NCBI GenBank assembly: GCA_021372535.1
Contig: JAJFUH010000107.1
Coordinates: forward strand, 5,768 to 69,767
DNA: 64,000 nt
Direction: 5' to 3'
DNA from: a bacterium
Lineage (GTDB): Bacteria > Latescibacterota > Latescibacteria > Latescibacterales > Latescibacteraceae
In this document: positions 2,569 to 42,639 of the stretch, one piece after another
How the letters are laid out: the number at the start of each line of letters is the position of its first letter
Position numbering within the stretch: position 1 is the stretch's first letter
Notes under the pieces: generated by a model
Databases searched by the model: none
Told to the model about the DNA's origin: nothing
The model's input: the letters and a program-made list of their open reading frames with translations, nothing else
Position numbers and translations under genes: made by a program

Positions 2569-4137
2569 GTGTACGAAGTGCTGACCTATGCCGAGATTCA
2601 TTATCGACCGCGATTTGTTCCGAGCCTGATTTTCAGAAAATGGCCGGAGATACTGTGCGATGCACCGGCCCGTATCGACCGTGGCCGCCCTGTTCCGGTA
2701 TTCATCATTATCAGGGATGCCCACAAATACCCTGTCCGTATCGAAATGGTGACCGTCCATCTGGTTTATGAGAGCGGTATGGAACGTGTCGCCCAATTCC
2801 CCTATGGCGGTATCACGGTCAATGAACAGATATGGTGGGACTCTATTAACATCATGCCCGAATACCAGGGGAATGTCAGTATTTCCGTAACTGTTCATGC
2901 CGTACGGGGTAAAAGCCATTCCTATGTGAATGTCGATAATTACAGCGGCACCACACACAGCCCGCTGACCGTGTATGTATCGCCGTATCCGCTGCCGGGC
3001 GATACCGGCTGGTTTCATGGCGATATTCACTGTCACACCTTTTATACCGCCGATCAGGTGGAATTCGGGGCGCCGCTCGAAGTGATGGCATTCGCCGCAT
3101 ACTGCATGGGACTTCACTGGTTGGCCGCAACCGACCATTCATATGATCTCGATGACCGGTATGATGATTATGCAACCGAAGACCCCGATTTGATTAAATG
3201 GCAGTTGATGAAAAAGCAGACACAGCTTCTTTCGCCCACCTTGACGGTGATTCCCGGCGAGGAAGTCACCTGCCGGACATATGCGGGGCTGAACTGCCAT
3301 ATGCTGGCGCTTGTTTCCGAGCGGTTCATCCGGGGATCGGGTGACAGTGGGGAACGCGGGCTCCATAATGAGACGGAACTGGCGGTTTCGGAAGCTGTCC
3401 GGGAGTGCAGCGAATGGAACGGGATCGCATGCGCCGCCCATCCCCTGGAACATAACTCTCTCCTCGAGCGTCTTATACTCTCGCGGGGTGTGTGGACACA
3501 GTCCGATCTTGAACTGCCCGGTCTGACAGCGCTCCAGATTCATAACGGTATCCGTGACAAGGGTTTTTATGAGGGCATGAAAGCTTGGATCAGGCTTCTG
3601 CTCATGGGCAGGAAAGTGTATGCCTTCGGCGGAAGCGATGCCCATGGCGATATGAACCGGCGGCGCCGTACGACTCTGCCTCTTTGTGCGGTCGGTGAGG
3701 ACGGCTTTCATACTTTTGGTGCGGTGCGAACCGTTCTGTATGCCCCCTCGAGCCAGCAGGATCATATTATCGAAGCCCTCCGTAACGGCAGGGCACAGGT
3801 TACCGAGGGTCCCTTTATCCATCTTACCGTTTCATCCGGCGGTACCGTTGCCGGTATCGGCGATTGTTTTTCCGGGTCGGAGGGAATGATACAGGCAGTT
3901 TTCAGGTCTTCTCCCGAATTCGGGTATTTGAAATCGGGATGTCTGATGGCAGGAACTGTTGGCGAATCCTGCGAACGAATACTGGCTCTTCCCGATTTAT
4001 CCTCACCGGGACTCGATGCCCGGATTGAAAAAAATGAGAGTTTAAAGGGATTCAGGTATATCCGAGCCGAGTGTGAGACAGTATCGGGGAAATACTGCTT
4101 TACCAATCCTGTGTGGATAGAAAATAGCTCAGGATAA
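2569..4137 (+). CDS. PHP-domain (polymerase/histidinol-phosphatase family) metal-dependent phosphoesterase
   Basis: It starts with GTG. The motif GDIHCHTFYT is followed by further His/Asp clusters (AATDHSYD, AHPLEH, GGSDAHG), as in the PHP family. It is transcribed divergently from ilvE. Confidence 0.6.
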   Translation: MYEVLTYAEIHYRPRFVPSLIFRKWPEILCDAPARIDRGRPVPVFIIIRDAHKYPVRIEMVTVHLVYESGMERVAQFPYGGITVNEQIWWDSINIMPEYQGNVSISVTVHAVRGKSHSYVNVDNYSGTTHSPLTVYVSPYPLPGDTGWFHGDIHCHTFYTADQVEFGAPLEVMAFAAYCMGLHWLAATDHSYDLDDRYDDYATEDPDLIKWQLMKKQTQLLSPTLTVIPGEEVTCRTYAGLNCHMLALVSERFIRGSGDSGERGLHNETELAVSEAVRECSEWNGIACAAHPLEHNSLLERLILSRGVWTQSDLELPGLTALQIHNGIRDKGFYEGMKAWIRLLLMGRKVYAFGGSDAHGDMNRRRRTTLPLCAVGEDGFHTFGAVRTVLYAPSSQQDHIIEALRNGRAQVTEGPFIHLTVSSGGTVAGIGDCFSGSEGMIQAVFRSSPEFGYLKSGCLMAGTVGESCERILALPDLSSPGLDARIEKNESLKGFRYIRAECETVSGKYCFTNPVWIENSSG

Positions 4138-4482: not shown

Positions 4483-6327
4483 ATGGGTTTTTCAGCCGGA
4501 ATAAAGGGGAGGAAACGAGTGACTGCTCAAAAAAGTCTGTTATGCTGGGTAATTGTACTTCTGGGAATGTTTATGCTTTCGTGTTCGGAGGTTAAACCAC
4601 CGGTGAAAATTACCCAGTATACCGATCCGTCCAATATTGCAGGGCTTGCCGTTGATGGTAATATGGTTTATTGCGCTACTAAAGGCGGTCTTGTCAAATG
4701 GGATAAATCCGCGGGTGAATATACCCTTTTAACAACCGCCGATGGTCTGCCATCCAATATTCTTTCCGATGTGATAATCGACAAAGGGAAGAAGCTGTGG
4801 GTCAGCTCTATCCAGGGAGTTGGTGTATTTGACGGAAAAACATGGAAATGCTATGGAACATCGGAAGGACTTCCTTCCGGCGAAGTCAATGCCTTGAGCC
4901 TCGATAATAAAGGCGGAATATGGGCAGCAACGACAAAAGGCATGGCGAGCTTTGAGCGGGGACGTTTCAGGGTCTTCAAAGACAATGAAGGCCCTGTGGG
5001 GCTCGATATCCAGTGTATTTTCTTCGATAAAGGCGGCAACATCTGGGTCGGCACCGCTGAAAAAGGTGTATACACGAAAACCGACAAGGGCTGGCGCAGA
5101 ACCGGCTCGAAAAATGGCCTCACAACCGATGCGGCAAGCACCATCGCTCAGTCATGGGACAACAGTATCTGGGCTGCATCATGGGCCGGGATGTGTCGGT
5201 GGGACGGTTTTGGCTGGCAGGGCTTCAAGCCCATGTTGTGGCTCGGCACGTTCAAAGCCCGTAAACTTCAGGGTACACAGGAACGTTTATGGTATTTTAC
5301 GGCCAATGGGATTCATGCGGCCAAAGGAAGTGAGTGGCTGCATTATAACGAGGCGGACGGCCTGATTTCCAATGATGTTCTGAGCGGGATTGCGGTAACG
5401 GATGATCTGGTTTATGCCGGTACTTCATATGGCATGAGTGTCATCGAGAATTCTGCCATCGAAAATTATGTAATCCCGAATACCCCGTTCGGATATAACT
5501 GTATTTCTGTTACGGCCGATGACAAAGGTAGAATCTGGCTCGGAACATGGGAAACCGGTCTGAATGTCTATAATTCCGGTTCCTGGAGTCAGATAATGGG
5601 TGATAAACCCGAAACGCTGGCATCTGTACGGAGTATTATATTCGGCCCGGATGGCTCCATGGTGTTCAATACGACAAACGGCGTGGTTTTCAAGGATAAA
5701 CAGGGATGGAACATCCAGACCCGCAACGAGGGTCTGGCGGGTGATGATATACGGTGCGGGATTTATGATTCCGAGGGCAGATACTGGTGTGGAACATCGA
5801 CCGGCATAAGCTGTTTATCGCATGGAAACTGGGATCGGTATCGTGCCATTCACGGTCTGCCGTCCGAGGATATCTGGTCGTGCGCTCTAGATACGGAGGG
5901 TACGATCTGGTTCGGCACCACTGCCGGCATTGTCTCGCTCAAGGATAATGTGATAACCGACAGAACCCCGGAGATCGGTATGGATAGGCCTGATGTACGG
6001 TCGATTGCGGTGATAGGGGACACGGTTTATTTCGGTACGGAGAGCGGGAAAATCGTTACATACTCTAAGGGAATATGGGATGTGTACGGTAACAGGTTTT
6101 TGAATACCGATAAGGGCATTTACTCCATTGCTTCGGATCCTTCCGGCAGGTTATGGCTCGGTACCAACGGTGATGGTGTCATACGCATCGAAAACGATAA
6201 GGCATACAAATACACTCGTGAAGATGGCCTGCCGTCCAATTATGTCCGGTCGGTGATCTTTTCGGACGGCATTCTCTGGACAGCATGTCTCGGTGGAGCC
6301 GGAACAATCGAGCCGGTTGCACATTGA
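4483..6327 (+). CDS. Lipoprotein with two-component-regulator propeller (Reg_prop) beta-propeller repeats. It has no kinase or output domain.
   Basis: The signal peptide ends in the lipobox-like LSCS. Repeated G..W.GT..G.. modules are typical of Reg_prop/Y_Y_Y propellers. The true start may be an internal Met (MFMLSC...). Confidence 0.65.
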   Translation: MGFSAGIKGRKRVTAQKSLLCWVIVLLGMFMLSCSEVKPPVKITQYTDPSNIAGLAVDGNMVYCATKGGLVKWDKSAGEYTLLTTADGLPSNILSDVIIDKGKKLWVSSIQGVGVFDGKTWKCYGTSEGLPSGEVNALSLDNKGGIWAATTKGMASFERGRFRVFKDNEGPVGLDIQCIFFDKGGNIWVGTAEKGVYTKTDKGWRRTGSKNGLTTDAASTIAQSWDNSIWAASWAGMCRWDGFGWQGFKPMLWLGTFKARKLQGTQERLWYFTANGIHAAKGSEWLHYNEADGLISNDVLSGIAVTDDLVYAGTSYGMSVIENSAIENYVIPNTPFGYNCISVTADDKGRIWLGTWETGLNVYNSGSWSQIMGDKPETLASVRSIIFGPDGSMVFNTTNGVVFKDKQGWNIQTRNEGLAGDDIRCGIYDSEGRYWCGTSTGISCLSHGNWDRYRAIHGLPSEDIWSCALDTEGTIWFGTTAGIVSLKDNVITDRTPEIGMDRPDVRSIAVIGDTVYFGTESGKIVTYSKGIWDVYGNRFLNTDKGIYSIASDPSGRLWLGTNGDGVIRIENDKAYKYTREDGLPSNYVRSVIFSDGILWTACLGGAGTIEPVAH

Positions 6328-6367
6328 TGAAAAAACAGAAATTTACCGGGAGTACTGATAGAAATAC

Positions 6368-6397
6368 TTGACTTCGGTAAGATGATTTAATTATTTT
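6368..6397 (+). promoter_or_regulatory. Candidate sigma70-like promoter for tRNA-Gln (TTGACT-18-TATTTT)
   Basis: A -35/-10-like pair lies about 20 nt upstream of the tRNA 5' end. This rests on pattern only. Confidence 0.3.
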
Positions 6398-6419
6398 ACC
6401 CGCGATTAAAATTGAAGGT

Positions 6420-6493
6420 TGCCCCGTCGTCCAATGGCAAGACAGCTGACTCTGGATCAGCCTATCGAGGTTCAAATCCTTGCGGGGCAGCCA
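6420..6493 (+). tRNA. tRNA-Gln (anticodon CUG)
   Basis: I folded it by hand. The acceptor stem is TGCCCCG/CGGGGCA, with the U1:A72 pair typical of bacterial tRNA-Gln. The anticodon stem is GCTGA/TCAGC with loop CTCTGGA, giving anticodon CUG. The T-arm is GAGGTTCAAATCCTT (GAGG/CCTT). G73 and CCA are encoded. Confidence 0.85.
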
Positions 6494-6514
6494 TAATAAA
6501 ACGAGTATTACCAG

Positions 6515-6551
6515 CCACTTACAGGATATTATGTGAGTGGTTTTTTGTTTT
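6515..6551 (+). terminator. Rho-independent terminator downstream of tRNA-Gln
   Basis: The hairpin CCACTTACA...TGTGAGTGG is followed by TTTTTTGTTTTT. Confidence 0.6.
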
Positions 6552-6937
6552 TATATGCGTCTGGTACTACTTATAATACTACTCGGAAATAGGGGTATTT
6601 GTCAATTCTGAAGCTCGTTACATAGGTTACCCAGGATGATCGTTTACGGAAAGGACGTCAACGGACGTTCGTGTGACGTTTGACTGATATATCGATGGTT
6701 CACTTTGACCTTTTTTCACAATAATTTATTATTAATGAATTTATCTAAAATATCAAATGCCAACTTACTACACAAAATACCTATAATAAAGAAAAACTGA
6801 ATTTATTTCAACATAATCCGCAGGATATCGATTTTGTGATGAAACAATGCAAAAACTTTAAGTAATAAGCGAATAAGATGGGATTTTATAACATTGAAGA
6901 AATGACTATAAGGTATTGATTCTATAAGCTGTTTATC

Positions 6938-7010
6938 AATTGATCAATTTTGAGCAGATTTTCCTTGACTTTTAGCAATCAAGAAAGTAATATACACTCA
7001 ATTGATCAAA
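6938..7010 (+). promoter_or_regulatory. Candidate autoregulated promoter/operator of the BlaI-like repressor
   Basis: Palindromic AATTGATCAATT (6938–6949) and AATTGATCAA (7000–7009) boxes flank a TTGACT-17-TAATAT promoter (6965–6993). A TGATCA half-site lies at 7013–7018. Confidence 0.4.
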
Positions 7011-7039
7011 TATGATCAGTTCATTCGGAGAAAATAATT

Positions 7040-7435
7040 ATGAATAATAAAAACTTTCAACATTTTACAAAAGTAGAAATGGAATTCATGCAGATACTGT
7101 GGGATCACGGCGAACAATCACCTGAGGATATCAGGAGAATCTTAAAAGAGAATGGACGTGTACTGACTAACGGAGGAACAAGGAGAATTCTTTCAATTCT
7201 TTGCCGTAAAGGCCACATAACCCGAAGGAAAGAAGGAAGAAGTTACGTTTATAATCCAAACGTAAAGAAACAACAGGCATTCAAAGATATTCTTATTGAT
7301 CTCAGAAAACGGGTATTTGGTGATTCCGGTATAATAATGATTGCTGCGTTTCTTGACAGTTTCCATGCAAGTGATGATGAATTCAAAGAAATAAAACGTC
7401 TACTTGAGAATTATAAGAAGGATCGGGACAAGTGA
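7040..7435 (+). CDS. BlaI/MecI/CopY-family winged-helix transcriptional repressor
   Basis: The 131-aa protein has the penicillinase-repressor architecture. Its stop overlaps the start of a downstream M56-peptidase sensor, which is the canonical blaI–blaR1 pairing. The gene order is reversed relative to staphylococcal bla. Confidence 0.75.
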   Translation: MNNKNFQHFTKVEMEFMQILWDHGEQSPEDIRRILKENGRVLTNGGTRRILSILCRKGHITRRKEGRSYVYNPNVKKQQAFKDILIDLRKRVFGDSGIIMIAAFLDSFHASDDEFKEIKRLLENYKKDRDK

Positions 7436-10311
7436 CTTTATTTGAGATAGTGAATACTTTTAACAGGCTTGGTTTTTTAATATTCCGATATCTGGTGTCG
7501 TTTTTTTGGCAGTCTACTCTGTTTTTTGGAGCCGTACTTCTTGTTTTTATATTGTTTCGGAGGTTAAGCTCTTCAATAAAGCAGAGAATACTGTTTGTAT
7601 CTCTGTGCGCGATACCCCTTATTCCTTTAGTTTCGAAAACCGTCATAGATATAGGGGTGCCATATATAAGAATACCCGTGATACCCACATATTTTCCCCA
7701 GTCTGTGGTTTTTGACCGGATTATTCAGCCAACAGTAACTGAAAACCCTCTTGTTATCGGCGAATCAACCCGCCAGATCAATCCTGTTTACAAAAATACC
7801 ACTCTATCGAAATCAAACAGCCTCACATATGGCAGAATTATACTGTCTCACCCATGGATGTTCGTACTGTTAATATATATGGCAGTTCTGATATTGTTTC
7901 TTAAAAGAATAACGGCCAAATGGGTGGCTTTAAGGGCCTTGGCAGATTCCAGTACATATGATCTTGATCCGGAAACCAATCATATAGTACAGGAGGCATC
8001 TTCAAAAATAAAATGCAACCAGTCTTTCAGGGTTGTTGAGAACGAAGACATCGTATCTCCCATGGTTTTTGGCATTATAAAACCTGTTATCGTTATACCA
8101 AAAAGTGAAAAGTGGAATTTCTCAAGGTCTGATATGTATTTGATGTTTCTCCATGAGATTACTCATATAAAGAGAAAGGATCAACTTGTTTTCCTGATTG
8201 TCTCGATAATCAGAGCATTCTTCTTTTTCCATCCAGTCATCTGGATTGTTGCATGGCAACTTTTATTGTTGGCAGAGAAGTCTTGCGATGATTCGGTTCT
8301 CGATATACAGGAAAACCCCATCTCATACGCGTCGTTGTTGATTAAAATCATGGAAAATGCCAGAAATCAATCATTTAGTTTAAATGTCGCAGCAAATCTT
8401 GGTTTCCCGAAAAGTATGTTTTATAAAAGGATTATTTCTCTGCTCCTTGAGCACAAACACCATCAAAGAAAATATTCAATATTTGCAATAACTGCCTTTT
8501 TCGCCCTGCTGATCTCATCATATATCGTCACTGCCGCAATCCCACTGTCAGAATCGTTAAAAACATTGATCAACTCTAACAATTTAATGTCGAGATTTCT
8601 GATTTCGGAAAACATTGGTGTGAGAAATCAAATCCAGTATAATGCAACGGCTTATGCTGTCCCCCTTTATGGAATAACAATTGACGGTCGACTTGAAGAT
8701 TGGCCCCCAAACATGACACGGTATCCGATTCTGAATTATGGCAAAACATATGGCCCTACTGATATTGATTACGAAGATTTGAGTAAAAGCAGTGACCTGA
8801 GCCCACATTTCATGGTTGGCTACAATCCCGATAAAAACCTGCTCTACCTGGCTGTCATCGTTCGAGACGATATCATGTTTTCATTCAGTGAACATGCCAC
8901 CCTTTCGTTATTCGACTATCCCGATGCATGTGAAATCTATCTTTCGGGTAAGAAAAAGAACTCGATAATATCCATGAATGAAACCTTGACTGCAAATGAA
9001 TTGCCTGTTTTACAGTATGTAATGACCGCTTCAGGAATAATCTATAATAAAAATGTACCGAATACCGACATATCGAGGAACCCGATTCTTGTTATGGGTG
9101 ATATTACAAAGACAAAAACGCACGCGGTCAGCTCCAGGACTGGCGATGTCACCGTATATGAGTGGGAACTGGAGGTCTTTGATAAATACCCGGATAACAA
9201 AACACAGCTTATACCGGGTAAAACCATCGGCTTCGATGTTGCCGTTGTCGACAGGGATCATGAAGATGAATTCTCGGCATGGGGATGTTGGGGACCCTCC
9301 GGATATTTGAAAGTTGCAAATACATATCTGATAGGAGATATAGTCCTTTTAAGAGACAACAACAATTTTGGTTCTGTCACCGGCACCGTGGTCAATTCTC
9401 AAACCGGTCAGGGGATTTTCAAACAGATTATCGATGTTTACCGGCAGGGGAAACCAATTACCTGGACCATGAGTGATTCTGATGGAAAGTTTGGGATGCA
9501 GTTACCGGAAGGTCAATATGTCTTGAAACCACGCTATCATGATAAAGGGCATGAAATTGCCTTAACGGTAAAATCCGGCGAGTCGACGACAACGGACGTC
9601 ATGCTGGATATTACGAAAATTCCCGAAAAACTGCTGGAAACCATTAAACTGTATTCAAATCTATCCAGTTATTCCGATGTCACAGAAGTTAACGCTGTTA
9701 TGGGAATCCAGAATACAAAGATTGAATTCGCATTTAAAAATCCAAATTTTATGTATCAGAGTTATACAAGGATTGAAAACGGAGATAAATGTATAATATC
9801 ATGTGATGGAAGTAAAATGAGGGTAAATCGCGAGAATTCAGAAGAGTTCCTGGAAAAGAAAGCTCCCGGCGAACTCAGCGTATTTACAATCAGCTCGCTG
9901 ACAAACCAGCCTAGTGGCGGTTTTGTGCACCAGCTGATGCTATGCAGGGAACCGCTCAAACAACTGAATGAAGATCTCATCAGTGTTCGGTACCTCAGTT
10001 CCGACAGAATCGATGGTGTTGAATCTGACATTTTTGAGATAAACATGCGGGCGGGGACATTCACTACCTCGACTCGCTGGACACCGGATTATACAATCGT
10101 GTACCGTCTCTGGATAGGGAAACGGGATAAGGTAATCCGCAAAGTTGTGACAGAAATGGAGGAACGGCTGGATATTGCAAAAGCATCGGAAGATAATATG
10201 GTAACGAAAGTGAGACACTACTCCGTAACACATCGTCACCGCAAAATCAAACTCAATCCGAAGCTTATGGATACGTTATTCAAAGATAATCACAACCGTG
10301 TGGCAATATAG
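7432..10311 (+). CDS. BlaR1-like M56 peptidase signal transducer with a large C-terminal extracytoplasmic sensor region (CBM9/DOMON-like, carboxypeptidase-regulatory-like and LolA-like modules)
   Basis: N-terminal TM helices are followed by the HExxH motif FLHEITHIKRKD, typical of M56 BlaR1. A further ~650 aa follow. The DDSVEI/EFSAWG-type motifs resemble CBM9-like sugar-binding domains. There is no penicillin-binding domain. Confidence 0.7.
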   Translation: MTLFEIVNTFNRLGFLIFRYLVSFFWQSTLFFGAVLLVFILFRRLSSSIKQRILFVSLCAIPLIPLVSKTVIDIGVPYIRIPVIPTYFPQSVVFDRIIQPTVTENPLVIGESTRQINPVYKNTTLSKSNSLTYGRIILSHPWMFVLLIYMAVLILFLKRITAKWVALRALADSSTYDLDPETNHIVQEASSKIKCNQSFRVVENEDIVSPMVFGIIKPVIVIPKSEKWNFSRSDMYLMFLHEITHIKRKDQLVFLIVSIIRAFFFFHPVIWIVAWQLLLLAEKSCDDSVLDIQENPISYASLLIKIMENARNQSFSLNVAANLGFPKSMFYKRIISLLLEHKHHQRKYSIFAITAFFALLISSYIVTAAIPLSESLKTLINSNNLMSRFLISENIGVRNQIQYNATAYAVPLYGITIDGRLEDWPPNMTRYPILNYGKTYGPTDIDYEDLSKSSDLSPHFMVGYNPDKNLLYLAVIVRDDIMFSFSEHATLSLFDYPDACEIYLSGKKKNSIISMNETLTANELPVLQYVMTASGIIYNKNVPNTDISRNPILVMGDITKTKTHAVSSRTGDVTVYEWELEVFDKYPDNKTQLIPGKTIGFDVAVVDRDHEDEFSAWGCWGPSGYLKVANTYLIGDIVLLRDNNNFGSVTGTVVNSQTGQGIFKQIIDVYRQGKPITWTMSDSDGKFGMQLPEGQYVLKPRYHDKGHEIALTVKSGESTTTDVMLDITKIPEKLLETIKLYSNLSSYSDVTEVNAVMGIQNTKIEFAFKNPNFMYQSYTRIENGDKCIISCDGSKMRVNRENSEEFLEKKAPGELSVFTISSLTNQPSGGFVHQLMLCREPLKQLNEDLISVRYLSSDRIDGVESDIFEINMRAGTFTTSTRWTPDYTIVYRLWIGKRDKVIRKVVTEMEERLDIAKASEDNMVTKVRHYSVTHRHRKIKLNPKLMDTLFKDNHNRVAI

Positions 10312-10873
10312 TCATAAAAAACAAATATATATTGTTTTTTATGTTCTTATGGCAGTCTTGCTGTTTGCATGCAATAATATCATGATTTTATAATTCGGCA
10401 GAAAACAGGCTTCATACATCATTCTCAGGATTCGATGTAACAAATCGCTGTAATGTTTCATCAAAGTGGTGAAATTGTATGTAATCGGTATTAAATACGC
10501 CCCAAAGTGATCAATATTGATCATTTCAAAAGAAACTATTATAAGGATTAAAAAAGTTCCATTCAATCATCTTTAAAGAGGCTTTATCACCTCATGAAAG
10601 AATGGAGAGTCAGCTTGTTCCGTATGAACGTACATAGTGAAAAATCATTCTTTAGCAATCTTGTTGAATTCTGGAGACACGTATTTCGAGATTCAGATTC
10701 GTTGACGGGCGACAATTACTTGGTCAGCAAAGACGAATACGAAGAAATTGAACTGTTGTTTCGCAGCCCCGGTAAAGAACGTACGAGTGGTATAGAGAAT
10801 GAATAACCTGGATTTAAACATTGAAAAGAATTCCGGGCCATAAAATGTATAATGAAAAAAGGAGGTATCTGCC

Positions 10874-11965
10874 GTGAAAAAAAATCTGAAAATGGAATTT
10901 CTGCTCTTATTAGTTATTCTCCTCGTTTTTGCGTGTCTGTCCTTGCCGGTTTCCGGCGAAAATCATGATTATCAGAACGGTGTAAATCCTCAACGTAACG
11001 TACTTGTGGAAGCATTCACGGGTTCATGGTGTAGAAATTGCACAGTAGATATATTGACTGTTGAAAGGTATGTAAGAACGCATAGTAATATCTTTATGCT
11101 GGCGTATCATTTCAATGATCAGATGGCCACAGAAGATATCGAGGTGGTTATTTTCAGATTTACTGACGCATTTCCAGGTTTTGCTGTGGACAGGACTGTT
11201 TATAAAGACCTTAATTCCCTTGTTGCGAGAATGAACAACTGTGCTCAAAAAATTGAGGAGAGGTTATTGATTCCGCCCCGAATGACAATCGATCTGAGTT
11301 ATACGTATTCTCCTGAATCAAGACTGATCGATCTCGATGTCGCTCTTCATACCCTTGAGACAATCGATGCGAATTGTTATCTCCATATCGTTGTTGCTGA
11401 GGACAGCCTTAAATATCCGCAGCAAGGGGGAGCCGATCCATTCTACCACATGCATACCGTGCGCGACTTTATAACGGGAACAGACGGCGAACGGCTTAAC
11501 GATTCTGTACTCGCGGAGGGAACCGATATTCACAGGAATTATGCATACACACTGCAAAGCAAATTCAAACCTGAGAAAATCCGCATCGTTGTATTTGTCA
11601 GCGAAGGAATCGTGGGACCGGTGTGCCAGGCCGAGGAGCTGGTTCTCGTCGAGAACATCGTGACCAGGGTCGATGAATTGACCCCGGATACGTTCCGGGT
11701 GCACGCACCCTATCCTAATCCTTTCAATCCCGTAACAACGATCGAGTTTACTCTTCCCTCGGAATCGCATGTCAGCCTTGTAATGTATGATGTGCTGGGA
11801 AGAGTCGTCGATATTCCCGTTGATCGAACCTTGAGTACCGGGACACACCGGATCGTATGGGACGGCCGCGACAGAAAGGGTATCACGCTTGCTGATGGAC
11901 TGTATCTGTTCCGGCTTACTGCCGGAAATCATATAGCTCATGGGAAAGTGACACTTCTCAGATGA
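10874..11965 (+). CDS. Secreted T9SS cargo protein with an N-terminal CxxC thioredoxin-like (Omp28-related) domain and a C-terminal Por secretion sorting domain
   Basis: It has a signal peptide and the motif EAFTGSWCRNC. The C-terminus (YPNPFNPVTTIEF...GLYLFRLTAG...KVTLLR) matches the T9SS type-A CTD (TIGR04183-like). It is a paralog of 14323..16074 (shared YHMHxVRxxITGTxGERLN). Confidence 0.7.
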   Translation: MKKNLKMEFLLLLVILLVFACLSLPVSGENHDYQNGVNPQRNVLVEAFTGSWCRNCTVDILTVERYVRTHSNIFMLAYHFNDQMATEDIEVVIFRFTDAFPGFAVDRTVYKDLNSLVARMNNCAQKIEERLLIPPRMTIDLSYTYSPESRLIDLDVALHTLETIDANCYLHIVVAEDSLKYPQQGGADPFYHMHTVRDFITGTDGERLNDSVLAEGTDIHRNYAYTLQSKFKPEKIRIVVFVSEGIVGPVCQAEELVLVENIVTRVDELTPDTFRVHAPYPNPFNPVTTIEFTLPSESHVSLVMYDVLGRVVDIPVDRTLSTGTHRIVWDGRDRKGITLADGLYLFRLTAGNHIAHGKVTLLR

Positions 11966-12066
11966 TTGGTAAAAAAAACTTTTCGATTATGGTTTATGAA
12001 TACCATGAGATATTCCGGAATAAATCCATCAATCGGCATAGACAATTTCCACCAAAGGAGAGAGAG

Positions 12067-14238
12067 ATGAGAACTTCAAGGCTGATTTTTATGGCGATCA
12101 TGATTATAACTGTATCACAAGCTCTGGCGCAGGGAACGTGGACGCAATACCCGATAAGAATTGAAAAAATACAAGATATTGTGGTAAAAGACGGCGAATT
12201 ATGGTGTTCTTCGGAACGTAGAGTTTTTACGGTAAATCCATCGACAATGGAGTATAATGAGATTTTTAATGCTGGTTCTGATTATACAGGTGAAATTGAA
12301 AAGAGCACTACAGGTGATGTTTTAGTTGGCCTTGCCACAAAACAGTTCGTGTTTAAAAACGGTACATGGAAAAAAATCCAATATTCAGAACCCAATTCCG
12401 ATATCAGATATCCTGGAGCAGAATACTATGTACCATTTTGTTATGACCCTGACGGGATATGCTGGATGGCGGGCCATGGGATCGGGTTGATTCGTTTTGA
12501 CGGAGAGAAATATTCCAAAGTACCGGATGTTGAGTTTCTCCCGGATGATCGGGTAAAATCAATATTTGCCGGAAGTGATGGCAGAATATGGATCGGTACT
12601 AAAATAGGATTATATTGCTACGACAGAGAATCCGTGGAAAAACTGAGTTATAGCAAGGATAATCCTGAATATCGTGTTAAATGCATAGCGGAGGGATCGG
12701 ATGGTTCAATCTGGATAGGTACTCTGGATGATGGTATATTTAATTACAAAGACGGCTCGTGGAGCCACTATATTCCGGAGAGCAACGGAATTAAATATTT
12801 TGGCACCGGCTCATTACTCGTGGATGATACAGGGAACCTCTGGGCTTCATTAGTTCCTGTGAACTTTGAATGTAATAATCCTAATTCAACGCTTTTTAAG
12901 TTCGACGGTGAAACCTGGTATTCCTACCCCGATCCTGTTACCGCTAAATTAGTGGTGAAGTCATTAACACTCGCTCCTGACGGCACTATATGGGCAGGGA
13001 CGTACAATCAGATTTCTGATAAAGATGCCGGTATACTGCAATTTGACGGCAAAAAGTGGACAAATCACTTCTACAGTGAATTCATACCTCGTAACTTATA
13101 TATATATGGTCTCTTATACCACGATGGTTCATTACTACTGGCAACTGAAAACGAAGGATTATACCAGTATGATGGTACATCGTGGTCACACATCGTAAGC
13201 CCGTTTACCGATGCCAGGTCTGTCGCTGTTTCATCCGATAACAAAATATGGGTAGCAACAAAAGAAAAGCTTTACCGAAATGATGATTCATCATGGAAAC
13301 CTTTTACTTCAAACATGCTGACCGATAATAATATAATAAATCAAATCGCTGTCGGTTCCGATGGAATCGTATGGTGTATGACAAAGAACGGCCTTGTGCG
13401 TTTTGATGGTTCCGTCTGGAAATTGCAGGGTGAGAGCGACGGTATTCCCGATGGGGTCCTTTCAACTATTGCGGCTGATCCTTCCGGCCATATCTGGTTA
13501 GCCTGGTATACTTTTATATCCGATGAATTAATAAGTGGTATTACTGTTTATGATGGTGAAAAATGGACGGAAACGGGAATACCGGATAATTCGAAAGCGT
13601 CCACGGCTATCAATAAAATCATTTTCGGTCCCGAAGGTGAACCCTGGGCCGTCAGCTATAATGAACTTTTCAGATATGACGGTGCAAAATGGGTGAAAGA
13701 ACCGTATGAGTACCGGCAAATAATGGATATCACCTGTGATTCGGAAGGATATCTCTATATAAGAAATGAGATGGGAGTTGACTGTTATAATGGTGAAAGT
13801 AGAATGACCTATATCACTGGCATAGATGTCCCGAATTTGTCCTTTCTGGCAGCAGGTGATAAAGGTATGGTTTTTGGCGTGATGAGAGACGGTGTTTTCG
13901 CGCGGTTCGATCCTTACCGGATTCCAACGGTCGTCGATGAACCATATATAACAACTCCCGGTACATTCCCGATTGTTGGCAATTATCCGAATCCGTTCAA
14001 TATGTCGACAACCGTCTATTTCGAGCTGCCGTCGGAAACGCTGGTCGATCTTGCGATATTCTCAGTTACGGGACAGAAGATACGGACGCTGGTTTCCGAA
14101 CGGAAGAATCCCGGCAGGCATGTAATCGTATGGGACGGTCGCGATGATTTTGGCCGGAACGTATCTTCCGGCATCTATATAAGCCGTCTGCTCGGGGGAG
14201 AACTTACCGCATCATCACGCATGATGTTGTTAAAGTAG
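12067..14238 (+). CDS. Secreted Reg_prop beta-propeller repeat protein with a T9SS C-terminal sorting domain
   Basis: The ORF track gives 11962..14238. The likely start is the Met at 12067 (MRTSRLIFMAIMII..., signal peptide). It has many DG.IW.GT..GL repeats. The CTD is YPNPFNMSTTVYFELP...GIYISRL. Confidence 0.7.
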   Translation: MRTSRLIFMAIMIITVSQALAQGTWTQYPIRIEKIQDIVVKDGELWCSSERRVFTVNPSTMEYNEIFNAGSDYTGEIEKSTTGDVLVGLATKQFVFKNGTWKKIQYSEPNSDIRYPGAEYYVPFCYDPDGICWMAGHGIGLIRFDGEKYSKVPDVEFLPDDRVKSIFAGSDGRIWIGTKIGLYCYDRESVEKLSYSKDNPEYRVKCIAEGSDGSIWIGTLDDGIFNYKDGSWSHYIPESNGIKYFGTGSLLVDDTGNLWASLVPVNFECNNPNSTLFKFDGETWYSYPDPVTAKLVVKSLTLAPDGTIWAGTYNQISDKDAGILQFDGKKWTNHFYSEFIPRNLYIYGLLYHDGSLLLATENEGLYQYDGTSWSHIVSPFTDARSVAVSSDNKIWVATKEKLYRNDDSSWKPFTSNMLTDNNIINQIAVGSDGIVWCMTKNGLVRFDGSVWKLQGESDGIPDGVLSTIAADPSGHIWLAWYTFISDELISGITVYDGEKWTETGIPDNSKASTAINKIIFGPEGEPWAVSYNELFRYDGAKWVKEPYEYRQIMDITCDSEGYLYIRNEMGVDCYNGESRMTYITGIDVPNLSFLAAGDKGMVFGVMRDGVFARFDPYRIPTVVDEPYITTPGTFPIVGNYPNPFNMSTTVYFELPSETLVDLAIFSVTGQKIRTLVSERKNPGRHVIVWDGRDDFGRNVSSGIYISRLLGGELTASSRMMLLK

Positions 14239-14322
14239 ATTGATACGTATGAAATAACAACCGTTCGTCTTTGCAGGATGGACGGTTGTTGATTTTCAGC
14301 CGCGAAGTGACCGTAAAGAGAT

Positions 14323-16074
14323 ATGAACCTTATCGAAAAGGCATCTGTCGTGAAATCAGAGTCGTATACCATGTTTTTCATATATACGCTGGTGTTTTTA
14401 ATAGCTTTGTTTCATGCCGGGACAGCGGTTTCGGGCGATAACTACGAACCGAATGATTCGAGAGAAACGGCATACGAAATATCTTTTTCCGATGGTGTAT
14501 GGAAATCCGAAACGGCAACGATCGACACCCGGGAAGATGCCGACTGGTATTCGTTTTACGGGGAAAGCGATAGTTTCATTTCTATTTCATCCGATCCCAT
14601 TACAAAGTTCGACATTGCTTTTTCTCTCTATTACGGCGATTCAAGACTCACCTGCGCCGACAATTATTTCAGCGGTATGGCTGAAAAAATCGTAAAATAT
14701 CCGCTTGGTAAGGACGGGATATACTATATATGTGTCGGAACTCCCGAATCGACAAAAAAGAGAACCACTACCGATACGGATTCGTTCGGCTCGTATTCAC
14801 TCGAAATAACACTGTATAAAAGTCATACCATTTCCGGAAAAGTAACTGATTCACAAACGGGAAACGCGATATCGTCGGCACGGATCACTGTCGAACATGA
14901 TACCTCATATACAGCCGAGACAGATGTCGATGGAATGTTTGAAGTTATCCTGAAAGGAGCCCTCTCAGGCGAACCATTTGCCATACAGGTTCAAAAAACC
15001 GGCTATATTGCCGAGATTGCCAAAGGGATTGTATCAAATGCAAAGGAAACTGCCGTATCGATAGAACTCGCCCCACTTCCGGACAATTCCCGCAATGTCC
15101 TCCTTGAAGAATTCACCGCAACCTGGTGCACGTGGTGCCCGTATGCTACCGATATACTTGAAGAGATAATCCGCAGCCAGGGCAATGTTATCTCCATTGC
15201 GTACCACATTGAAGATGAAATGAGCACACCCGAAGGAGATCAGCTTGACGATATGTTAAGTCCGGCGCTTCCTCAGGCATTGATCGACAGGACACAATTC
15301 ACTGGAAGCAGTTCCATCCTGGTCAATCGTCAGGAATGGACAAAGCGATGCATCGAACGCTCACAGGTGCCGGCTCCTCTTTCGATCCATATTTCATGCG
15401 ATTATACAGGCTCGTCACGAAATGCTGATGTGACCGTTGACATGCTTTCCCTTTCCGATATGAAGGGAGCGTACAGGATCAATGTGGTTGTCTGCGAAGA
15501 CAGCCTTGATTATGAGCAGCATATCACCGGAAAAGACTATAAAACGATTTCTCCTTACTACCATATGCATGTCGTTCGCCGGATGATTACGGGAACATAT
15601 GGCGAACGGTTAAATACCGATCCGATTCAGGCGCAGACAAATATCCGGAAATACTATTCGTTCACGCTCGATGATTCGATTAATGAAAACTACGCTCGTC
15701 TTGTGGTATTCGTCAATGAAGATTTAAAAAACGGCCTGGGACCAGTGCAGCAGGCTGCACAGTGTACTATTATGGAAGACACGATAACGGAAGTCGAAAT
15801 CGACGAGCGAATCGCCTTTCAGATTCATCCGGCATTCCCGAATCCATTCAATACTACAACGATGATTCCATTCACTCTGACACAGGATAAACACATAGTG
15901 CTGACTGTTTATAACATTGTTGGAGAAAAAGTAACGACACTGACCGACCGTATCTGGCCACCGGGTAAGCATTCCATAATTTGGGATGCTCATGGATTTT
16001 CCAGCGGAATATATTTTTACCGGCTACAGGCGGGTGCGTCGATAGGCACGGGGAAAATGCTGCTGATCAAGTGA
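14323..16074 (+). CDS. Secreted multidomain T9SS cargo protein with PPC-like, carboxypeptidase-regulatory-like and CxxC thioredoxin-like (Omp28-related) domains plus the T9SS CTD
   Basis: It has the EPNDSRETAYEI PPC-type motif, a CxxC motif (EEFTATWCTWCPYA), and the CTD FPNPFNTTTMIPFTL...GIYFYRLQAG. The start may be the Met at 14371. Confidence 0.65.
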   Translation: MNLIEKASVVKSESYTMFFIYTLVFLIALFHAGTAVSGDNYEPNDSRETAYEISFSDGVWKSETATIDTREDADWYSFYGESDSFISISSDPITKFDIAFSLYYGDSRLTCADNYFSGMAEKIVKYPLGKDGIYYICVGTPESTKKRTTTDTDSFGSYSLEITLYKSHTISGKVTDSQTGNAISSARITVEHDTSYTAETDVDGMFEVILKGALSGEPFAIQVQKTGYIAEIAKGIVSNAKETAVSIELAPLPDNSRNVLLEEFTATWCTWCPYATDILEEIIRSQGNVISIAYHIEDEMSTPEGDQLDDMLSPALPQALIDRTQFTGSSSILVNRQEWTKRCIERSQVPAPLSIHISCDYTGSSRNADVTVDMLSLSDMKGAYRINVVVCEDSLDYEQHITGKDYKTISPYYHMHVVRRMITGTYGERLNTDPIQAQTNIRKYYSFTLDDSINENYARLVVFVNEDLKNGLGPVQQAAQCTIMEDTITEVEIDERIAFQIHPAFPNPFNTTTMIPFTLTQDKHIVLTVYNIVGEKVTTLTDRIWPPGKHSIIWDAHGFSSGIYFYRLQAGASIGTGKMLLIK

Positions 16075-16089
16075 AAGCATGGAGAAACA

Positions 16090-16611
16090 GTGATGAACAA
16101 GTATAAATCGTTTGCAACGGTATTCGTTATCTCGTTTTGTTTTTTTGTTCTGCCATATTCTCGATCGTATGCCCGGTCACCTGTCATACCTTTCTCATTC
16201 AAAACGTTGACAAACGAAATCATGCCTGTTGATTCCCTTCTTCAGAAAGGACCGGTACTGATAACATTCTGGGCAATGTGGTGCAAACCGTGCAAGGAAG
16301 AACTGCATGCGCTCAGCAAGGTACATTCCGAGTATCCTTTTGATTCCATTACGATAGTATCCGTGACAATCGATACTCCGCGAAGCATAGACCGTGTCAA
16401 ATCCTATGTTAAAACTCACAATTTCCCTTTTATATGCAGTACCGATCCCGGTAAAGAAATACTGAGAATCTTCAACGTTTCAGGGATTCCCTTTACGGTG
16501 ATTCTCAATAAAAAGCGGGAAGTGATCATGATGCATTCCGGATATGTCCCCGGTGATCTGGACGAATATGGAAAAAAAATCGAAAGCTGTCTGAAAACAG
16601 GAAAAGAATGA
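16090..16611 (+). CDS. TlpA/ResA-like periplasmic thiol:disulfide oxidoreductase (thioredoxin fold)
   Basis: It has a signal peptide and the WAMWCKPC active-site motif, with the size of TlpA-like thioredoxins. Its stop overlaps the start of the next gene. Confidence 0.75.
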   Translation: MMNKYKSFATVFVISFCFFVLPYSRSYARSPVIPFSFKTLTNEIMPVDSLLQKGPVLITFWAMWCKPCKEELHALSKVHSEYPFDSITIVSVTIDTPRSIDRVKSYVKTHNFPFICSTDPGKEILRIFNVSGIPFTVILNKKREVIMMHSGYVPGDLDEYGKKIESCLKTGKE

Positions 16612-18215
16612 ACAATATCGAGAAATACATAATAACGCTTCTTCTTTTTACAATCATACCGGTTCGTGCGTTCGCTTCACTGCCTTCCGTATCCGTCTCG
16701 AACTATTTCCGCTACGGTTTTGGCAACGAGATCATGAATTATAGAAATGAGGACAAGAAATATCTTGAAGAAAAAATCGCTGTTAATATTCACTGGAACC
16801 GTTTTCTGCTCGGCGGACGATATGATTATGACAATCCACCGGAATTTGGTTTTGAACATAGAAAACTGAGAAAATGGTATCTTGAATACAGGAAGGGACA
16901 ATGGAAACTCAGGGGAGGCACGTTCGCGGCCCTTTTTTCAAGGGGTCTGGTTTTAAACGCATACGAAGAGGAAATGATCGGTCATGACAGCGAAATTACC
17001 GGCGTAAACGCGCTGTATGAAAACGAACGCACAACGGTAAATATACTTGCCGGAAGCATGGATTATGAGATGATTCCGGATTTCAGGGATATCGTAACCT
17101 ATAACCTGCGCGGCGGTTCGATACGGAAAAAACTCATCGATTGGTACGCTGTCGGAGGCAGTTTCATACGGAGCGACCTGACCCAGAAAATCGGATATTA
17201 TAAGGTTAAGGACAAATTTTACGTAAATACAGCGGAGTTATGGTCGGAGATTGAAACAGACAATTTCAAGTTGTATGGCGGTATGGCATCAAACTCCCAT
17301 GAAAACAGAGGTCTTTTCACAGAGGGTGAAAACAGCGTATATGTTTCGCTCAACATGAATCTGCCCTCCACAAATGTCAACATTGAGTTCAAAAACTATA
17401 AATTCGGATTGACAACTCCTGAATATTGGGATTACACCCTGTATCGTCACCGGATGCTCGCATTTCAGAATCCTCCCACAGTAGTAAGAGAACACAGCTG
17501 GGTGCTGCTTTCACGACGCACACACAGTGTCAGTTTCAATGATGAGGTCGGTATGCAGTTCGACCTCTATCACAGACTATACCCTGAAACTACGCTCAAC
17601 CTTAACGGATCCGTTGCCGGAAAGCATTACCGGTATGATATGAATGAGTTCGGGGATTTTTCACGCAGAAAAAAGAATTTATCGTGGATACCGTCGCTCG
17701 ATCCCGAATATTCTCCGTTCTGGCAGGTATATGGTGAAGTTGAACACTACTTCCCGAATGGCAGTTCCATTACTGGTGGATTAGCCTATACGTTTGAGAG
17801 GATTTACAACTACTATATACCGGATGTCAGGGAGGAAAACAGGTCGTGTATCATACCCGTCCGGTTTATCTTTCAGCTGCCCGACTTGTATTCGTTACAG
17901 GGCACGGTAGAATATCAGAAATTTAAGGAAACCCTTCACGGCGACCAGTATTTTACCAACAGTTACTTTTCGTTTGGGATAGGCAAATCGCCTTACCTGA
18001 CAGCGGCAGTCGATGCTGAATATGTCACGAAAGGGTACGAGTATGATGATAAAACGCTGTGGTTGATTGGTACAATTCGTTATTGTTTCCGTTCGAGCCA
18101 GATTTTTGAAATAGGATATGGCGAGACACGAGGTGGACTTGTCTGCACGAACGGACGGTGCCGTTATGTTCCGGAATACAAGGGTTGGCGCTTTTCCGCC
18201 GAGATTCACTTCTGA
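16608..18215 (+). CDS. Putative outer-membrane beta-barrel protein of unknown function
   Basis: It has a signal peptide, alternating amphipathic segments rich in Y/G/F, and a C-terminal Phe (…AEIHF), as is typical of OMP barrels. It is the last gene of the T9SS-cargo/thioredoxin operon. Confidence 0.5.
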   Translation: MNNIEKYIITLLLFTIIPVRAFASLPSVSVSNYFRYGFGNEIMNYRNEDKKYLEEKIAVNIHWNRFLLGGRYDYDNPPEFGFEHRKLRKWYLEYRKGQWKLRGGTFAALFSRGLVLNAYEEEMIGHDSEITGVNALYENERTTVNILAGSMDYEMIPDFRDIVTYNLRGGSIRKKLIDWYAVGGSFIRSDLTQKIGYYKVKDKFYVNTAELWSEIETDNFKLYGGMASNSHENRGLFTEGENSVYVSLNMNLPSTNVNIEFKNYKFGLTTPEYWDYTLYRHRMLAFQNPPTVVREHSWVLLSRRTHSVSFNDEVGMQFDLYHRLYPETTLNLNGSVAGKHYRYDMNEFGDFSRRKKNLSWIPSLDPEYSPFWQVYGEVEHYFPNGSSITGGLAYTFERIYNYYIPDVREENRSCIIPVRFIFQLPDLYSLQGTVEYQKFKETLHGDQYFTNSYFSFGIGKSPYLTAAVDAEYVTKGYEYDDKTLWLIGTIRYCFRSSQIFEIGYGETRGGLVCTNGRCRYVPEYKGWRFSAEIHF

Positions 18216-22834: not shown

Positions 22835-23215
22835 ATGAAAGTAGGTGTCGGTTTACTTGGCGAACTTGAATGGGCAGTTATGAAAACGTGTTGGGATAAA
22901 GGCAAAACAACCGCGCGAATAATCTTCGAGGAAATAAAAAAAACAAGAAATATACAATACCAAACGATAAAGACAACCCTCGACAGATTAGTCCAAAAAG
23001 GGTATCTCGTACGAGAGAAGTTTGGTCCTATTTGGCTTTATTCTTCCACGGTTACTGAAACGACATTGACATCAAAAGCAATTGAAAGCTTTGCTCAGAC
23101 TGTTTTTGGTAATGCTATTGCGCCGGTTTTTATTCACCTTTTAAAGAAAAAAAAGTATACCCATGAAATCGAAGAACTGAAAAAGATTATCAATGAAATT
23201 GAAGAGGAGGACTGA
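22835..23215 (+). CDS. BlaI/MecI/CopY-family transcriptional repressor (second copy)
   Basis: The 126-aa winged-helix protein is followed immediately by an M56 peptidase gene. Confidence 0.7.
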   Translation: MKVGVGLLGELEWAVMKTCWDKGKTTARIIFEEIKKTRNIQYQTIKTTLDRLVQKGYLVREKFGPIWLYSSTVTETTLTSKAIESFAQTVFGNAIAPVFIHLLKKKKYTHEIEELKKIINEIEEED

Positions 23216-23266
23216 GCCATAGAATCAATCATTTCGACAATAGTTTCGGCCAGCCGGATTGTATGG

Positions 23267-42433: not shown

Positions 42434-42639
42434 TTCCCCCGATAGTCTCTTGTAAAAATAGTATGGCTGAAACCCGATAAAGCATGTAAATAGACCGGCT
42501 GAACGTCTGTGGTTAATCAGGGAGAATCACCGTTTTTCTCAATCGTTAAAACCCGTTTTATTTTCACCGTGATTTGTCATATCTTACATTTCACTTATAA
42601 AGACAACCATTCAGTGTGAGAACATACTTGGAGGTAATT

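Follow-up and report, generated by a model that had tools for sequence, protein, structure and literature searches.

A BlaI-type repressor gene paired with an M56 protease gene bearing a CBM9-fold, three-domain extracytoplasmic region: a probable non-penicillin derepression switch in a Latescibacteraceae genome

A 64,000-nucleotide (nt) stretch of a Latescibacteraceae genome (GenBank assembly GCA_021372535.1, contig JAJFUH010000107.1, forward-strand positions 5,768 to 69,767; the whole stretch is hereafter the window, numbered from its own first letter) carries a gene for a winged-helix repressor of the BlaI family directly upstream of a gene for an M56 zinc protease with a long C-terminal extension. 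The promoter, the two genes and the parts of the protease are as follows (aa, amino acids).

6965–6993, plus strand: sigma-70-like promoter TTGACT-17-TAATAT of the blaI-M56 operon; 9 of 12 consensus matches, TTGAC offset shared with relatives
7040–7435, plus strand: BlaI/MecI/CopY-family winged-helix repressor gene, 131 aa; PF03965, PDB matches to BlaI and MecI, NCBI MCE5250489.1
7432–10311, plus strand: M56 metalloprotease-sensor open reading frame (ORF), 959 aa, GTG start; PF05569, NCBI MCE5250490.1
7432–8550, plus strand: M56 membrane protease part, residues 1–373; from PF05569, hydropathy and BlaR1 alignment
8638–9366, plus strand: CBM9-fold (DOMON-like) beta-sandwich, residues ~403–645; from model, Foldseek and family profile
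9367–9612, plus strand: CarboxypepD_reg-like (transthyretin/Ig-like) beta domain, residues ~646–727; from model and aligned orthologues
9613–10308, plus strand: LolA/LprG/RseB-fold domain (DUF2092-like), residues ~728–959; from Foldseek and PF09865

An earlier reading, made from the DNA letters alone (the sequence-only reading), had recognized a BlaI/M56 pair with a HEITH motif at this position, and profile searches bear this out. In Pfam, the repressor matches Penicillinase_R (PF03965) at E = 4e-21 (75.9 bits, cutoff 22.6), and the 959-aa protein matches Peptidase_M56 (PF05569) at E = 5e-31 (108.5 bits, cutoff 31); the repressor also aligns with the BlaI and MecI structures in the PDB. The two co-directional genes overlap by 4 nt, with the blaI stop and the GTG start of the M56 gene sharing GTGA, and the same overlap is found in the related loci L001 and L002. 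HEITH occupies residues 241–245 (nt 8152–8166) and is followed by a hydrophobic stretch (251–282) and by Glu282. Residues 150–361 align to the Staphylococcus aureus BlaR1 cryo-EM sequences (8exs/8exp) with HExxH and the downstream Glu in register, and both elements are unchanged in three orthologues. Hydropathy predicts transmembrane segments at ~20–43, 52–70, 139–160 and 350–372, and with a BlaR1-like topology residues 373–959, beyond the last helix, are predicted to be extracytoplasmic.

The products of both genes score far under the NCBIfam BlaI and BlaR1 equivalog cut-offs; the M56 protein reached 98.6 against a cutoff of 400 for blaR1_generic, a match covering only its residues 35–378, and gave no Pfam match to the transpeptidase-like sensor PF00905. 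CopY copper repressors carry a C-terminal CxCxxxxCxC metal site. The repressor is not of the CopY type: it has no C-terminal cysteines, and it scores 57 bits against a cutoff of 122 for TIGR02698. The recognition-helix region of the repressor is LTNGGTRRILSILCRKG, and its single cysteine, at position 55, lies in that region (LSILCRKG).

The sequence-only reading had also described two palindromes, AATTGATCAATT at 6938–6949 and AATTGATCAA at 7000–7009, flanking TTGACT-17-TAATAT (−35 at 6965–6970, −10 at 6988–6993), and had taken them for an autoregulatory operator. The palindromes, the bracketed promoter and the autoregulatory operator stand, whereas their register does not: the predicted operator unit is a 16-bp 6-4-6 dyad, TGATCA-N4-TGA(T/G)CA, of which the palindrome noted earlier is the left half plus flanking bases. 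Two such sites lie at the promoter.

6941–6956, no strand: operator site A, TGATCAATTTTGAGCA; 6-4-6 dyad with one mismatch, starting 24 nt 5′ of TTGAC
7003–7018, no strand: operator site B, TGATCAAATATGATCA; perfect dyad, 9 nt past the −10 and 21 nt before the ATG

Palindromes can arise by chance in AT-rich DNA or as Dam (GATC) sites with no operator function, and some of the counts would suit such an origin. The short words TTGATCAA and AATTGATCAA are by themselves not enriched in the window (4 occurrences of the 8-mer versus 2.8 expected, and 13 of the 10-mer versus 12), and the 16-bp dyad at up to two mismatches occurs there at the chance rate (6 versus 5.45 expected). Against this, TGATCA-N4-TGATCA with at most one mismatch occurs three times in the window (6941, 7003 and 10508) versus 0.44 expected, a number that 0 of 100 shuffles reached, and all three dyads sit in the two spacers flanking the gene pair.

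We compared the window with the 170 nt upstream of 21 BlaI genes (35–62% identical) from loci L001–L003, L006–L016, L018, L019, L022, L023, L083, L091 and L094, mostly in Planctomycetota and Latescibacterota metagenome-assembled genomes with some unclassified, giving 22 regions in all. In 17 of the 22 (16 related loci and the window) there was a pair of 6-4-6 dyads, 54–62 nt apart, with no fewer than 11 of the 12 arm bases in common, and shuffled regions with even 10 of 12 shared arm bases numbered 7 in 4,400. The first dyad begins 24 nt (23–25) before TTGAC in 13 of the 16 related dyad-pair loci, namely those with a TTGAC, and 24 nt before it in the window; the second lies just past the −10 in the dyad-pair loci. 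In L001, the orthologous site TGATCAATTTTGAACA stands between the −10 and the ATG at the position of site B, in L002 AGATAAAAAATTATCG and CGATAAAGAATTATCG flank TTGACA-17-TATTTT, and the promoters of L003 and L083 have CGATAA-type dyads. Each lineage has its own half-site, which changes together with the recognition helix of the cognate repressor in the following pairings.

Half-site TGATCA: recognition helix GGTRR
Half-site CGATAA: recognition helix GAIRR
Half-site CGAGAA or TGAGAA: recognition helix GS[IV]RK
Half-site TACGAn: recognition helix GTIRN
Half-site GCGAA: recognition helix PS[VI]RT

We adopted the 6-4-6 register because of this shared two-dyad geometry together with the co-variation. 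The same two results, with each of the 16 related loci keeping the geometry while using its own half-site, speak against palindromes without operator function, and we regard a chance or Dam-site origin as close to negligible. BlaI-family repressors are known to use two dyads per target promoter and to control small autoregulated regulons (PMC8457756). An autoregulatory operator at a sigma-70-like promoter, with predicted repressor binding, is supported by these comparisons. They read as a specificity code for one BlaI branch, in which, across Planctomycetota and Latescibacterota-like genomes, the two-dyad geometry stays fixed and the half-sites follow the recognition helix; such a code may be usable for regulon prediction in uncultured genomes and for orthogonal repressor–operator design.

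The extension of the M56 protein was modelled with AlphaFold over residues 396–959 using 42 homologues, at a predicted local distance difference test score (pLDDT) of 88.6 and a predicted template modelling score (pTM) of 0.89. Among PDB entries, the best Foldseek matches of the sensor were CBM9 structures (7nwo, 7nwn and 1i82; template modelling score (TM-score) 0.82–0.83 on the target, E to 5e-11). The Pfam CBM9_1 match to residues 452–639 of the window protein is sub-threshold (16.6 versus a cutoff of 23.4), and orthologues score above threshold. The full-length alignment (A4) is dominated by the redoxin domain of paralogues, and the PDB profile search used the trimmed CBM9 domain; this family profile matches 1i82 (TmCBM9-2) at E = 1.3e-8, from which we take the CBM9-like domain to be truly homologous to CBM9. 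Its conserved motifs are IDGxLxDWP, DACE, QY, YEW, GFDVxVVDRD and AWGCWGP. Of 42 family members, 18 have both Cys500 (nt 8929–8931) and Cys619 (nt 9286–9288); the sigma-factor fusions described below mostly have Val and Tyr there instead, a pattern that suggests a disulfide.

Pfam lists no PF13620 (CarboxypepD_reg) match for the window protein itself; the middle domain is classed as CarboxypepD_reg-like from aligned orthologues and paralogues that match PF13620 and from the beta-only segment of the model. The last domain has the fold of an open beta-barrel capped by a helical lid, and it found LprG, LppX, LolA and RseB in Foldseek searches of the PDB (probability 1.0, TM-score 0.6–0.67 on the target); its DUF2092 (PF09865)/LolA-like match at residues 765–906 is sub-threshold in the window protein (17.1 versus a cutoff of 21.2) and above threshold in orthologues (44–53 bits). 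Domain scan and structure prediction of the C-terminal region thus find a carbohydrate-binding (CBM9) fold in it, and the ~650-aa extracytoplasmic region of three modules anticipated by the sequence-only reading agrees with the model, the Foldseek matches and the orthologues.

That reading went further and proposed glycan sensing, which the binding-site residues do not favour. CBM9 modules hold sugar in an aromatic clamp, formed by Trp71 and Trp175 in TmCBM9-2 and by Tyr89 and Trp191 in CkCBM9.3, and a CBM9 module lacking both clamp residues bound no natural carbohydrate tested (PMC8280721). In the ungapped profile alignment the equivalent of Trp175 is Val628 in the window protein, and 0 of 42 family members have Trp in that column; the equivalent of Trp71 is Trp in 10 of 42 members and Asp in the M56 clade, where a Phe and a Tyr flank it. 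No glycoside hydrolase or sugar transporter adjoins the pair in the window, L001, L002 or L086. Binding of the end of a soluble or cell-wall polysaccharide by the CBM9-like domain, leading to repressor cleavage, could still draw on the fold (TM-score 0.83), the profile homology to TmCBM9-2 and the above-threshold orthologues, on the two aromatic residues beside the missing Trp71, on one relative that carries the NCBI name 'sugar-binding protein', and on the precedent of ECF52 sigma factors with carbohydrate-binding modules. With the clamp absent and no glycoside hydrolase or sugar transporter in the examined loci, glycan sensing is possible but unsupported, and we rate it as unlikely. 'CBM9-like' should accordingly not be equated with 'carbohydrate-binding'.

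The full-length M56-sensor architecture is rare: a word-indexed search of 5.8 billion clusters returned two full-length relatives, P0002 (48% identical) and P0003 (39%). The module itself is far more widespread, with 834 proteins at E ≤ 0.001 and 99 at E ≤ 1e-30 in an exhaustive search of 1.84 billion representatives, at least seven of which are further M56 fusions. The M56 fusions fall into three grades.

Grade 1, ~730–760 aa: CBM9 and CarboxypepD_reg after M56 (L003, P0064 and others)
Grade 2, 959–972 aa: grade 1 plus the LolA-like domain (window, P0002)
Grade 3, 1,076–1,124 aa: grade 2 plus a TlpA/ResA-like redoxin (P0003, L086, P0071, P0081)

Outside the M56 proteins, the CBM9-like domain forms the end of membrane-tethered extracytoplasmic function (ECF) sigma factors: sigma regions 2 and 4 come first, one transmembrane helix and a Pro-rich linker follow, and the domain is last. 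P0014, P0028, P0044–P0055, P0065 and P0153 carry it as the extracytoplasmic end of ECF sigma factors and one Ser/Thr kinase, and one ECF sigma factor bears two copies. A published parallel is the ECF52 group, whose members have a C-terminal carbohydrate-binding domain (PMC5826349). Other carriers include many secreted redoxin, Yip1, PD40, SnoaL and amidohydrolase proteins, and many stand-alone copies of the module also end in a TlpA/ResA-like redoxin.

These carriers without any signalling domain (redoxin-only, Yip1, amidohydrolase, SnoaL and PD40 proteins) would fit a C-terminal region that is a structural or enzymatic-accessory periplasmic module, such as a redoxin anchor or substrate-binding arm, with the repressor controlled constitutively or by another input. 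We consider this improbable: transmembrane signal transducers of three unrelated classes have the domain as their extracytoplasmic end, and the repressor has neither a CopY-type Cys cluster nor another obvious ligand site. Its occurrence on those three classes is the best evidence that the module receives a signal, and it is probably a general extracytoplasmic sensor.

In L086 (6178–12222), a BlaI gene and an M56-CBM9-CarboxypepD_reg-DUF2092-redoxin gene (1,077 aa) lie directly 5′ of genes for a CopA-like heavy-metal P-type ATPase and a cupin. No copper link can be drawn from this locus, since its upstream repeats depart from the 6-4-6 pattern and the M56 gene is cut off from copA by a strong intrinsic terminator.

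The sequence-only reading had pointed to the operon downstream of the pair as a place where the palindrome might recur, and a perfect copy of the dyad does lie upstream of it.

10508–10523, no strand: operator site C, TGATCAATATTGATCA; palindromic over all 16 bp, within the 563 nt that separate the M56 gene from the next operon
10874–18215, plus strand: candidate target operon for type IX cargo and thioredoxin-fold proteins, tied to the repressor via site C alone

A matching site, TGATCAATATTGAACA, is found in L001 at 3579–3594, 39 nt past the M56 stop codon, and a CGATAA-type dyad lies between the M56 gene and the next gene in L083 (12704). Site C overlaps a mini-ORF, (V/M)INIDH... (14 codons, window 10508–10549), with a counterpart in L001, MINIEH (6 codons, 3578–3598); the mini-ORF is probably a by-product of the conserved palindrome. 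A small unannotated ORF downstream of site C (10594–10806) has no NCBIfam match, and an Rfam scan of 6300–11000 found a tRNA only.

The operon encodes three proteins with type IX secretion sorting domains, namely two Omp28/HBP35-like thioredoxin-fold proteins (WCRNC and WCTWC) and a PorZ-like propeller, together with a ResA/TlpA-like thiol-disulfide oxidoreductase (WCKPC) and a DUF6029 protein. The sorting domains, taken with the nearest relatives of the locus, suggest a host from the FCB group or a Latescibacterota-like lineage. An NCBIfam family named 'Omp28-related selenoprotein' exists, and its name suggests a redox-active CxxC in Omp28-like proteins. HBP35 of Porphyromonas gingivalis is a type IX cargo with thioredoxin activity (PMC2907840).

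The pair and this operon share a low-GC genomic island, delimited by a tRNA gene and a partial repeat of it.

6420–6493, plus strand: tRNA-Gln (CTG); ARAGORN, Rfam tRNA at 54 bits
18407–18462, plus strand: 56-nt direct repeat of the 3′ part of tRNA-Gln, an att-like right boundary; exact match to 6447–6502

The copy at 6447–6502 comprises the last 47 nt of the tRNA and 9 nt downstream. Each 56-nt copy is followed by a related terminator-like hairpin, and the two hairpins differ by paired substitutions. We place the bounds of a ~12-kb island with att-like direct repeats at these two points because the exact tRNA 3′ repeat is present at both ends; no integrase domain was found in the scanned ORFs of at least 110 aa between 6.5 and 27 kb.

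We consider it likely that the locus works as a switch of the BlaI/BlaR type, relieving repression by proteolysis, with a sensor for something other than penicillin. In such a switch the repressor, presumably as dimers, would bind the two 16-bp dyads around the −35 and after the −10 and keep the blaI-M56 operon low, and it would probably also bind the third, perfect dyad before the 10874–18215 operon. The last transmembrane helix of the polytopic M56 zinc protease would expose the three-domain module outside the cytoplasm, a cue at that module would activate the cytoplasmic protease, and cleavage of the repressor would derepress both promoters. That the repressor binds DNA, is cleaved and controls the downstream operon is what we infer, as is the kind of signal.

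Several observations weigh against this scheme. The scissile bond of S. aureus BlaI, Asn101-Phe102, aligns with Ala103-Phe104 in the repressor, and in relatives the position holds Ala or Thr followed by Phe or Leu, with Leu in place of Phe in many. Most other relatives have the two promoter sites only, and the genes past the third site vary, being DUF4159 proteins in L083 and the Omp28/TlpA operon in the window. No convincing promoter could be assigned at site C: on the plus strand there is TTGATC-17-TATAAG without the final T, and the better match nearby is on the minus strand (TTGAAT-17-TATAAT at 10566–10538). We are evenly divided on whether the repressor controls the 10874–18215 operon through site C. 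The LolA-like and redoxin modules are missing from the shortest M56-CBM9 proteins (~730–760 aa), so these modules cannot be essential to signalling across the subfamily.

For the cue of the proposed switch, an envelope-derived signal, whether a hydrophobic or lipid-linked ligand or one related to thiol redox, appears more likely than a free polysaccharide. Context associates the locus with thiol-redox proteins of the envelope more than with the use of glycans. The sensor-bearing M56 orthologues P0003, L086, P0071 and P0081 end in a TlpA/ResA-like redoxin, which in the window is a separate gene in the adjacent operon. One form of such sensing would be envelope stress, with the LolA/RseB-like domain binding a lipid-linked or hydrophobic molecule; another would be sensing of the thiol-disulfide state; the output in either case would be a surface thioredoxin-fold/TlpA module. 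The resemblance of the C-terminal domain to LolA, LprG and the stress sensor RseB is consistent with this, as are the recurrent fusions of the module to TlpA/ResA-like redoxins (M56 orthologues included), the three CxxC thioredoxin-fold proteins encoded by the operon with the same operator, the HBP35 precedent and the joint presence of Cys500 and Cys619 in 18 of 42 family members. All of this is associative and the regulation of the operon is itself an inference; moreover, most of the sigma-factor fusions have no such Cys pair, which may therefore be only a structural disulfide, and the shortest M56-CBM9 proteins have no LolA-like domain. Envelope-stress or thiol-disulfide sensing is, in our view, a tentative reading that falls short of probable, and a mislocalised lipoprotein or a lipopolysaccharide intermediate may be named as ligands with the same caution.

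More speculatively still, and with some doubt on our part, the CBM9-fold domain may be an unrecognised extracytoplasmic sensor that has been widely shuffled among at least three classes of transmembrane signalling protein, namely M56 sensor-proteases, membrane-tethered ECF sigma factors and Ser/Thr kinases; here it would couple a non-glycan thiol-redox or lipid cue from the envelope, via cleavage of a BlaI-type repressor, to island-borne, type IX-secreted thioredoxin-fold surface proteins.

The pair shares with BlaI-BlaR1 and MecI-MecR1 of S. aureus and Bacillus licheniformis a winged-helix repressor gene directly 5′ of an M56 zinc protease gene, HExxH with a downstream Glu, a BlaR1-like pattern of transmembrane segments and two dyad operators at an autoregulated promoter. 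It differs from them in its sensor, composed of CBM9, CarboxypepD_reg-like and LolA folds rather than a penicillin-binding domain, in its 6-4-6 TGATCA dyad and in an Ala-Phe rather than Asn-Phe scissile position. The canonical BlaI/MecI operator has a TACA/TGTA core. In a recent survey only ~6% of M56 proteins bear a penicillin-binding domain, and for ~96% a BlaI-like gene is no more than five genes away (PMC13492132). We place the window pair among the non-canonical BlaIR systems, which account for most M56 proteins; within that group its sensor is rare and well structured. Like Clostridioides difficile CenIR, the M56-TonB_C proteins and Mycobacterium tuberculosis BlaI/BlaR, it combines an M56 protein without a transpeptidase domain with a BlaI-like repressor, in systems that answer to a non-beta-lactam signal (PMC13492132). 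Unlike the tail of CenR, which is short and predicted to be disordered, that of the window protein is ~590 residues long with three well-folded domains, and this architecture is not among the nine abundant M56 architectures of the survey (PMC13492132).

Beyond the BlaIR systems, membrane-tethered ECF sigma factors, including the ECF52 type, offer a likeness: a transmembrane regulator made of one polypeptide, and thought to be freed by proteolysis, has a carbohydrate-binding-module-like beta-sandwich as its extracytoplasmic end (PMC5826349), and some membrane-tethered ECF sigma factors are fused to homologues of the window CBM9-like domain itself. ECF52 factors are described as restricted to Actinobacteria and have a different carbohydrate-binding module (smart00776), and the proposed output in the window is not a sigma domain but a repressor that is a protein of its own and that the sensor protein would cleave. 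The xylanase CBM9 modules TmCBM9-2 and CkCBM9.3 resemble the window domain in fold (TM-score 0.83) and by profile homology (E = 1.3e-8), whereas the window domain has neither a Trp/Trp nor a Tyr/Trp clamp and no attached glycoside hydrolase. The last domain recalls RseB of the sigma-E pathway and LolA/LprG as a LolA-like half-barrel, set here within a protein proposed to signal across the membrane by proteolysis. RseB acts as a free-standing protein that shields the anti-sigma factor RseA, whereas the window domain belongs to the same polypeptide as the protease.

Textbooks treat BlaI/BlaR systems as antibiotic-resistance switches. Most M56 proteins have sensor domains of other kinds (PMC13492132). 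The well-folded three-domain sensor, the readable operator and the candidate regulon make the question of the signal experimentally approachable here, and the interest of the locus lies in a testable operator code for a BlaI clade and in a sensor module common to three classes of signalling protein.

The window contains a second BlaI/M56 pair, in a second low-GC segment at 18.5–27 kb.

22835–23215: second BlaI-like gene, E = 5e-26
23267–24601: second M56 gene, 444 aa, with a weak ExbD/TonB-like tail

As the sequence-only reading had it, two BlaI/BlaR pairs lie in AT-rich DNA associated with a tRNA-Gln island: the GC fraction is 0.416 in the DNA that holds the first pair and 0.36 in that of the second against ~0.50–0.52 in the flanks, and this DNA lies downstream of the tRNA gene. 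No third copy of the 56-nt repeat occurs in the second low-GC segment. The second pair (22835–24601) is of the common short non-canonical BlaIR type. The two BlaI proteins of the window are only 19% identical, and the promoter of the second pair has no TGATCA dyad, so there is no sign of cross-regulation between the pairs.

Upstream of the second pair, 21152–22561 encodes a Peptidase_C39 and DUF1573 protein, and 19637–21109, in the same segment, encodes a protein with a strong CBM9_1 match and tetratricopeptide repeats. The latter was rejected as a close relative of the sensor, its similarity being distant (E = 2e-4). A further ORF, 42616–45495, is also 959 aa long and is unrelated to the M56 protein, the equal length being a coincidence. 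Two Reg_prop (two-component regulator propeller) proteins are encoded near or within the island, one at 4483–6327, just outside it and before the tRNA gene, and the other inside it at 11962–14238, with a type IX sorting domain.

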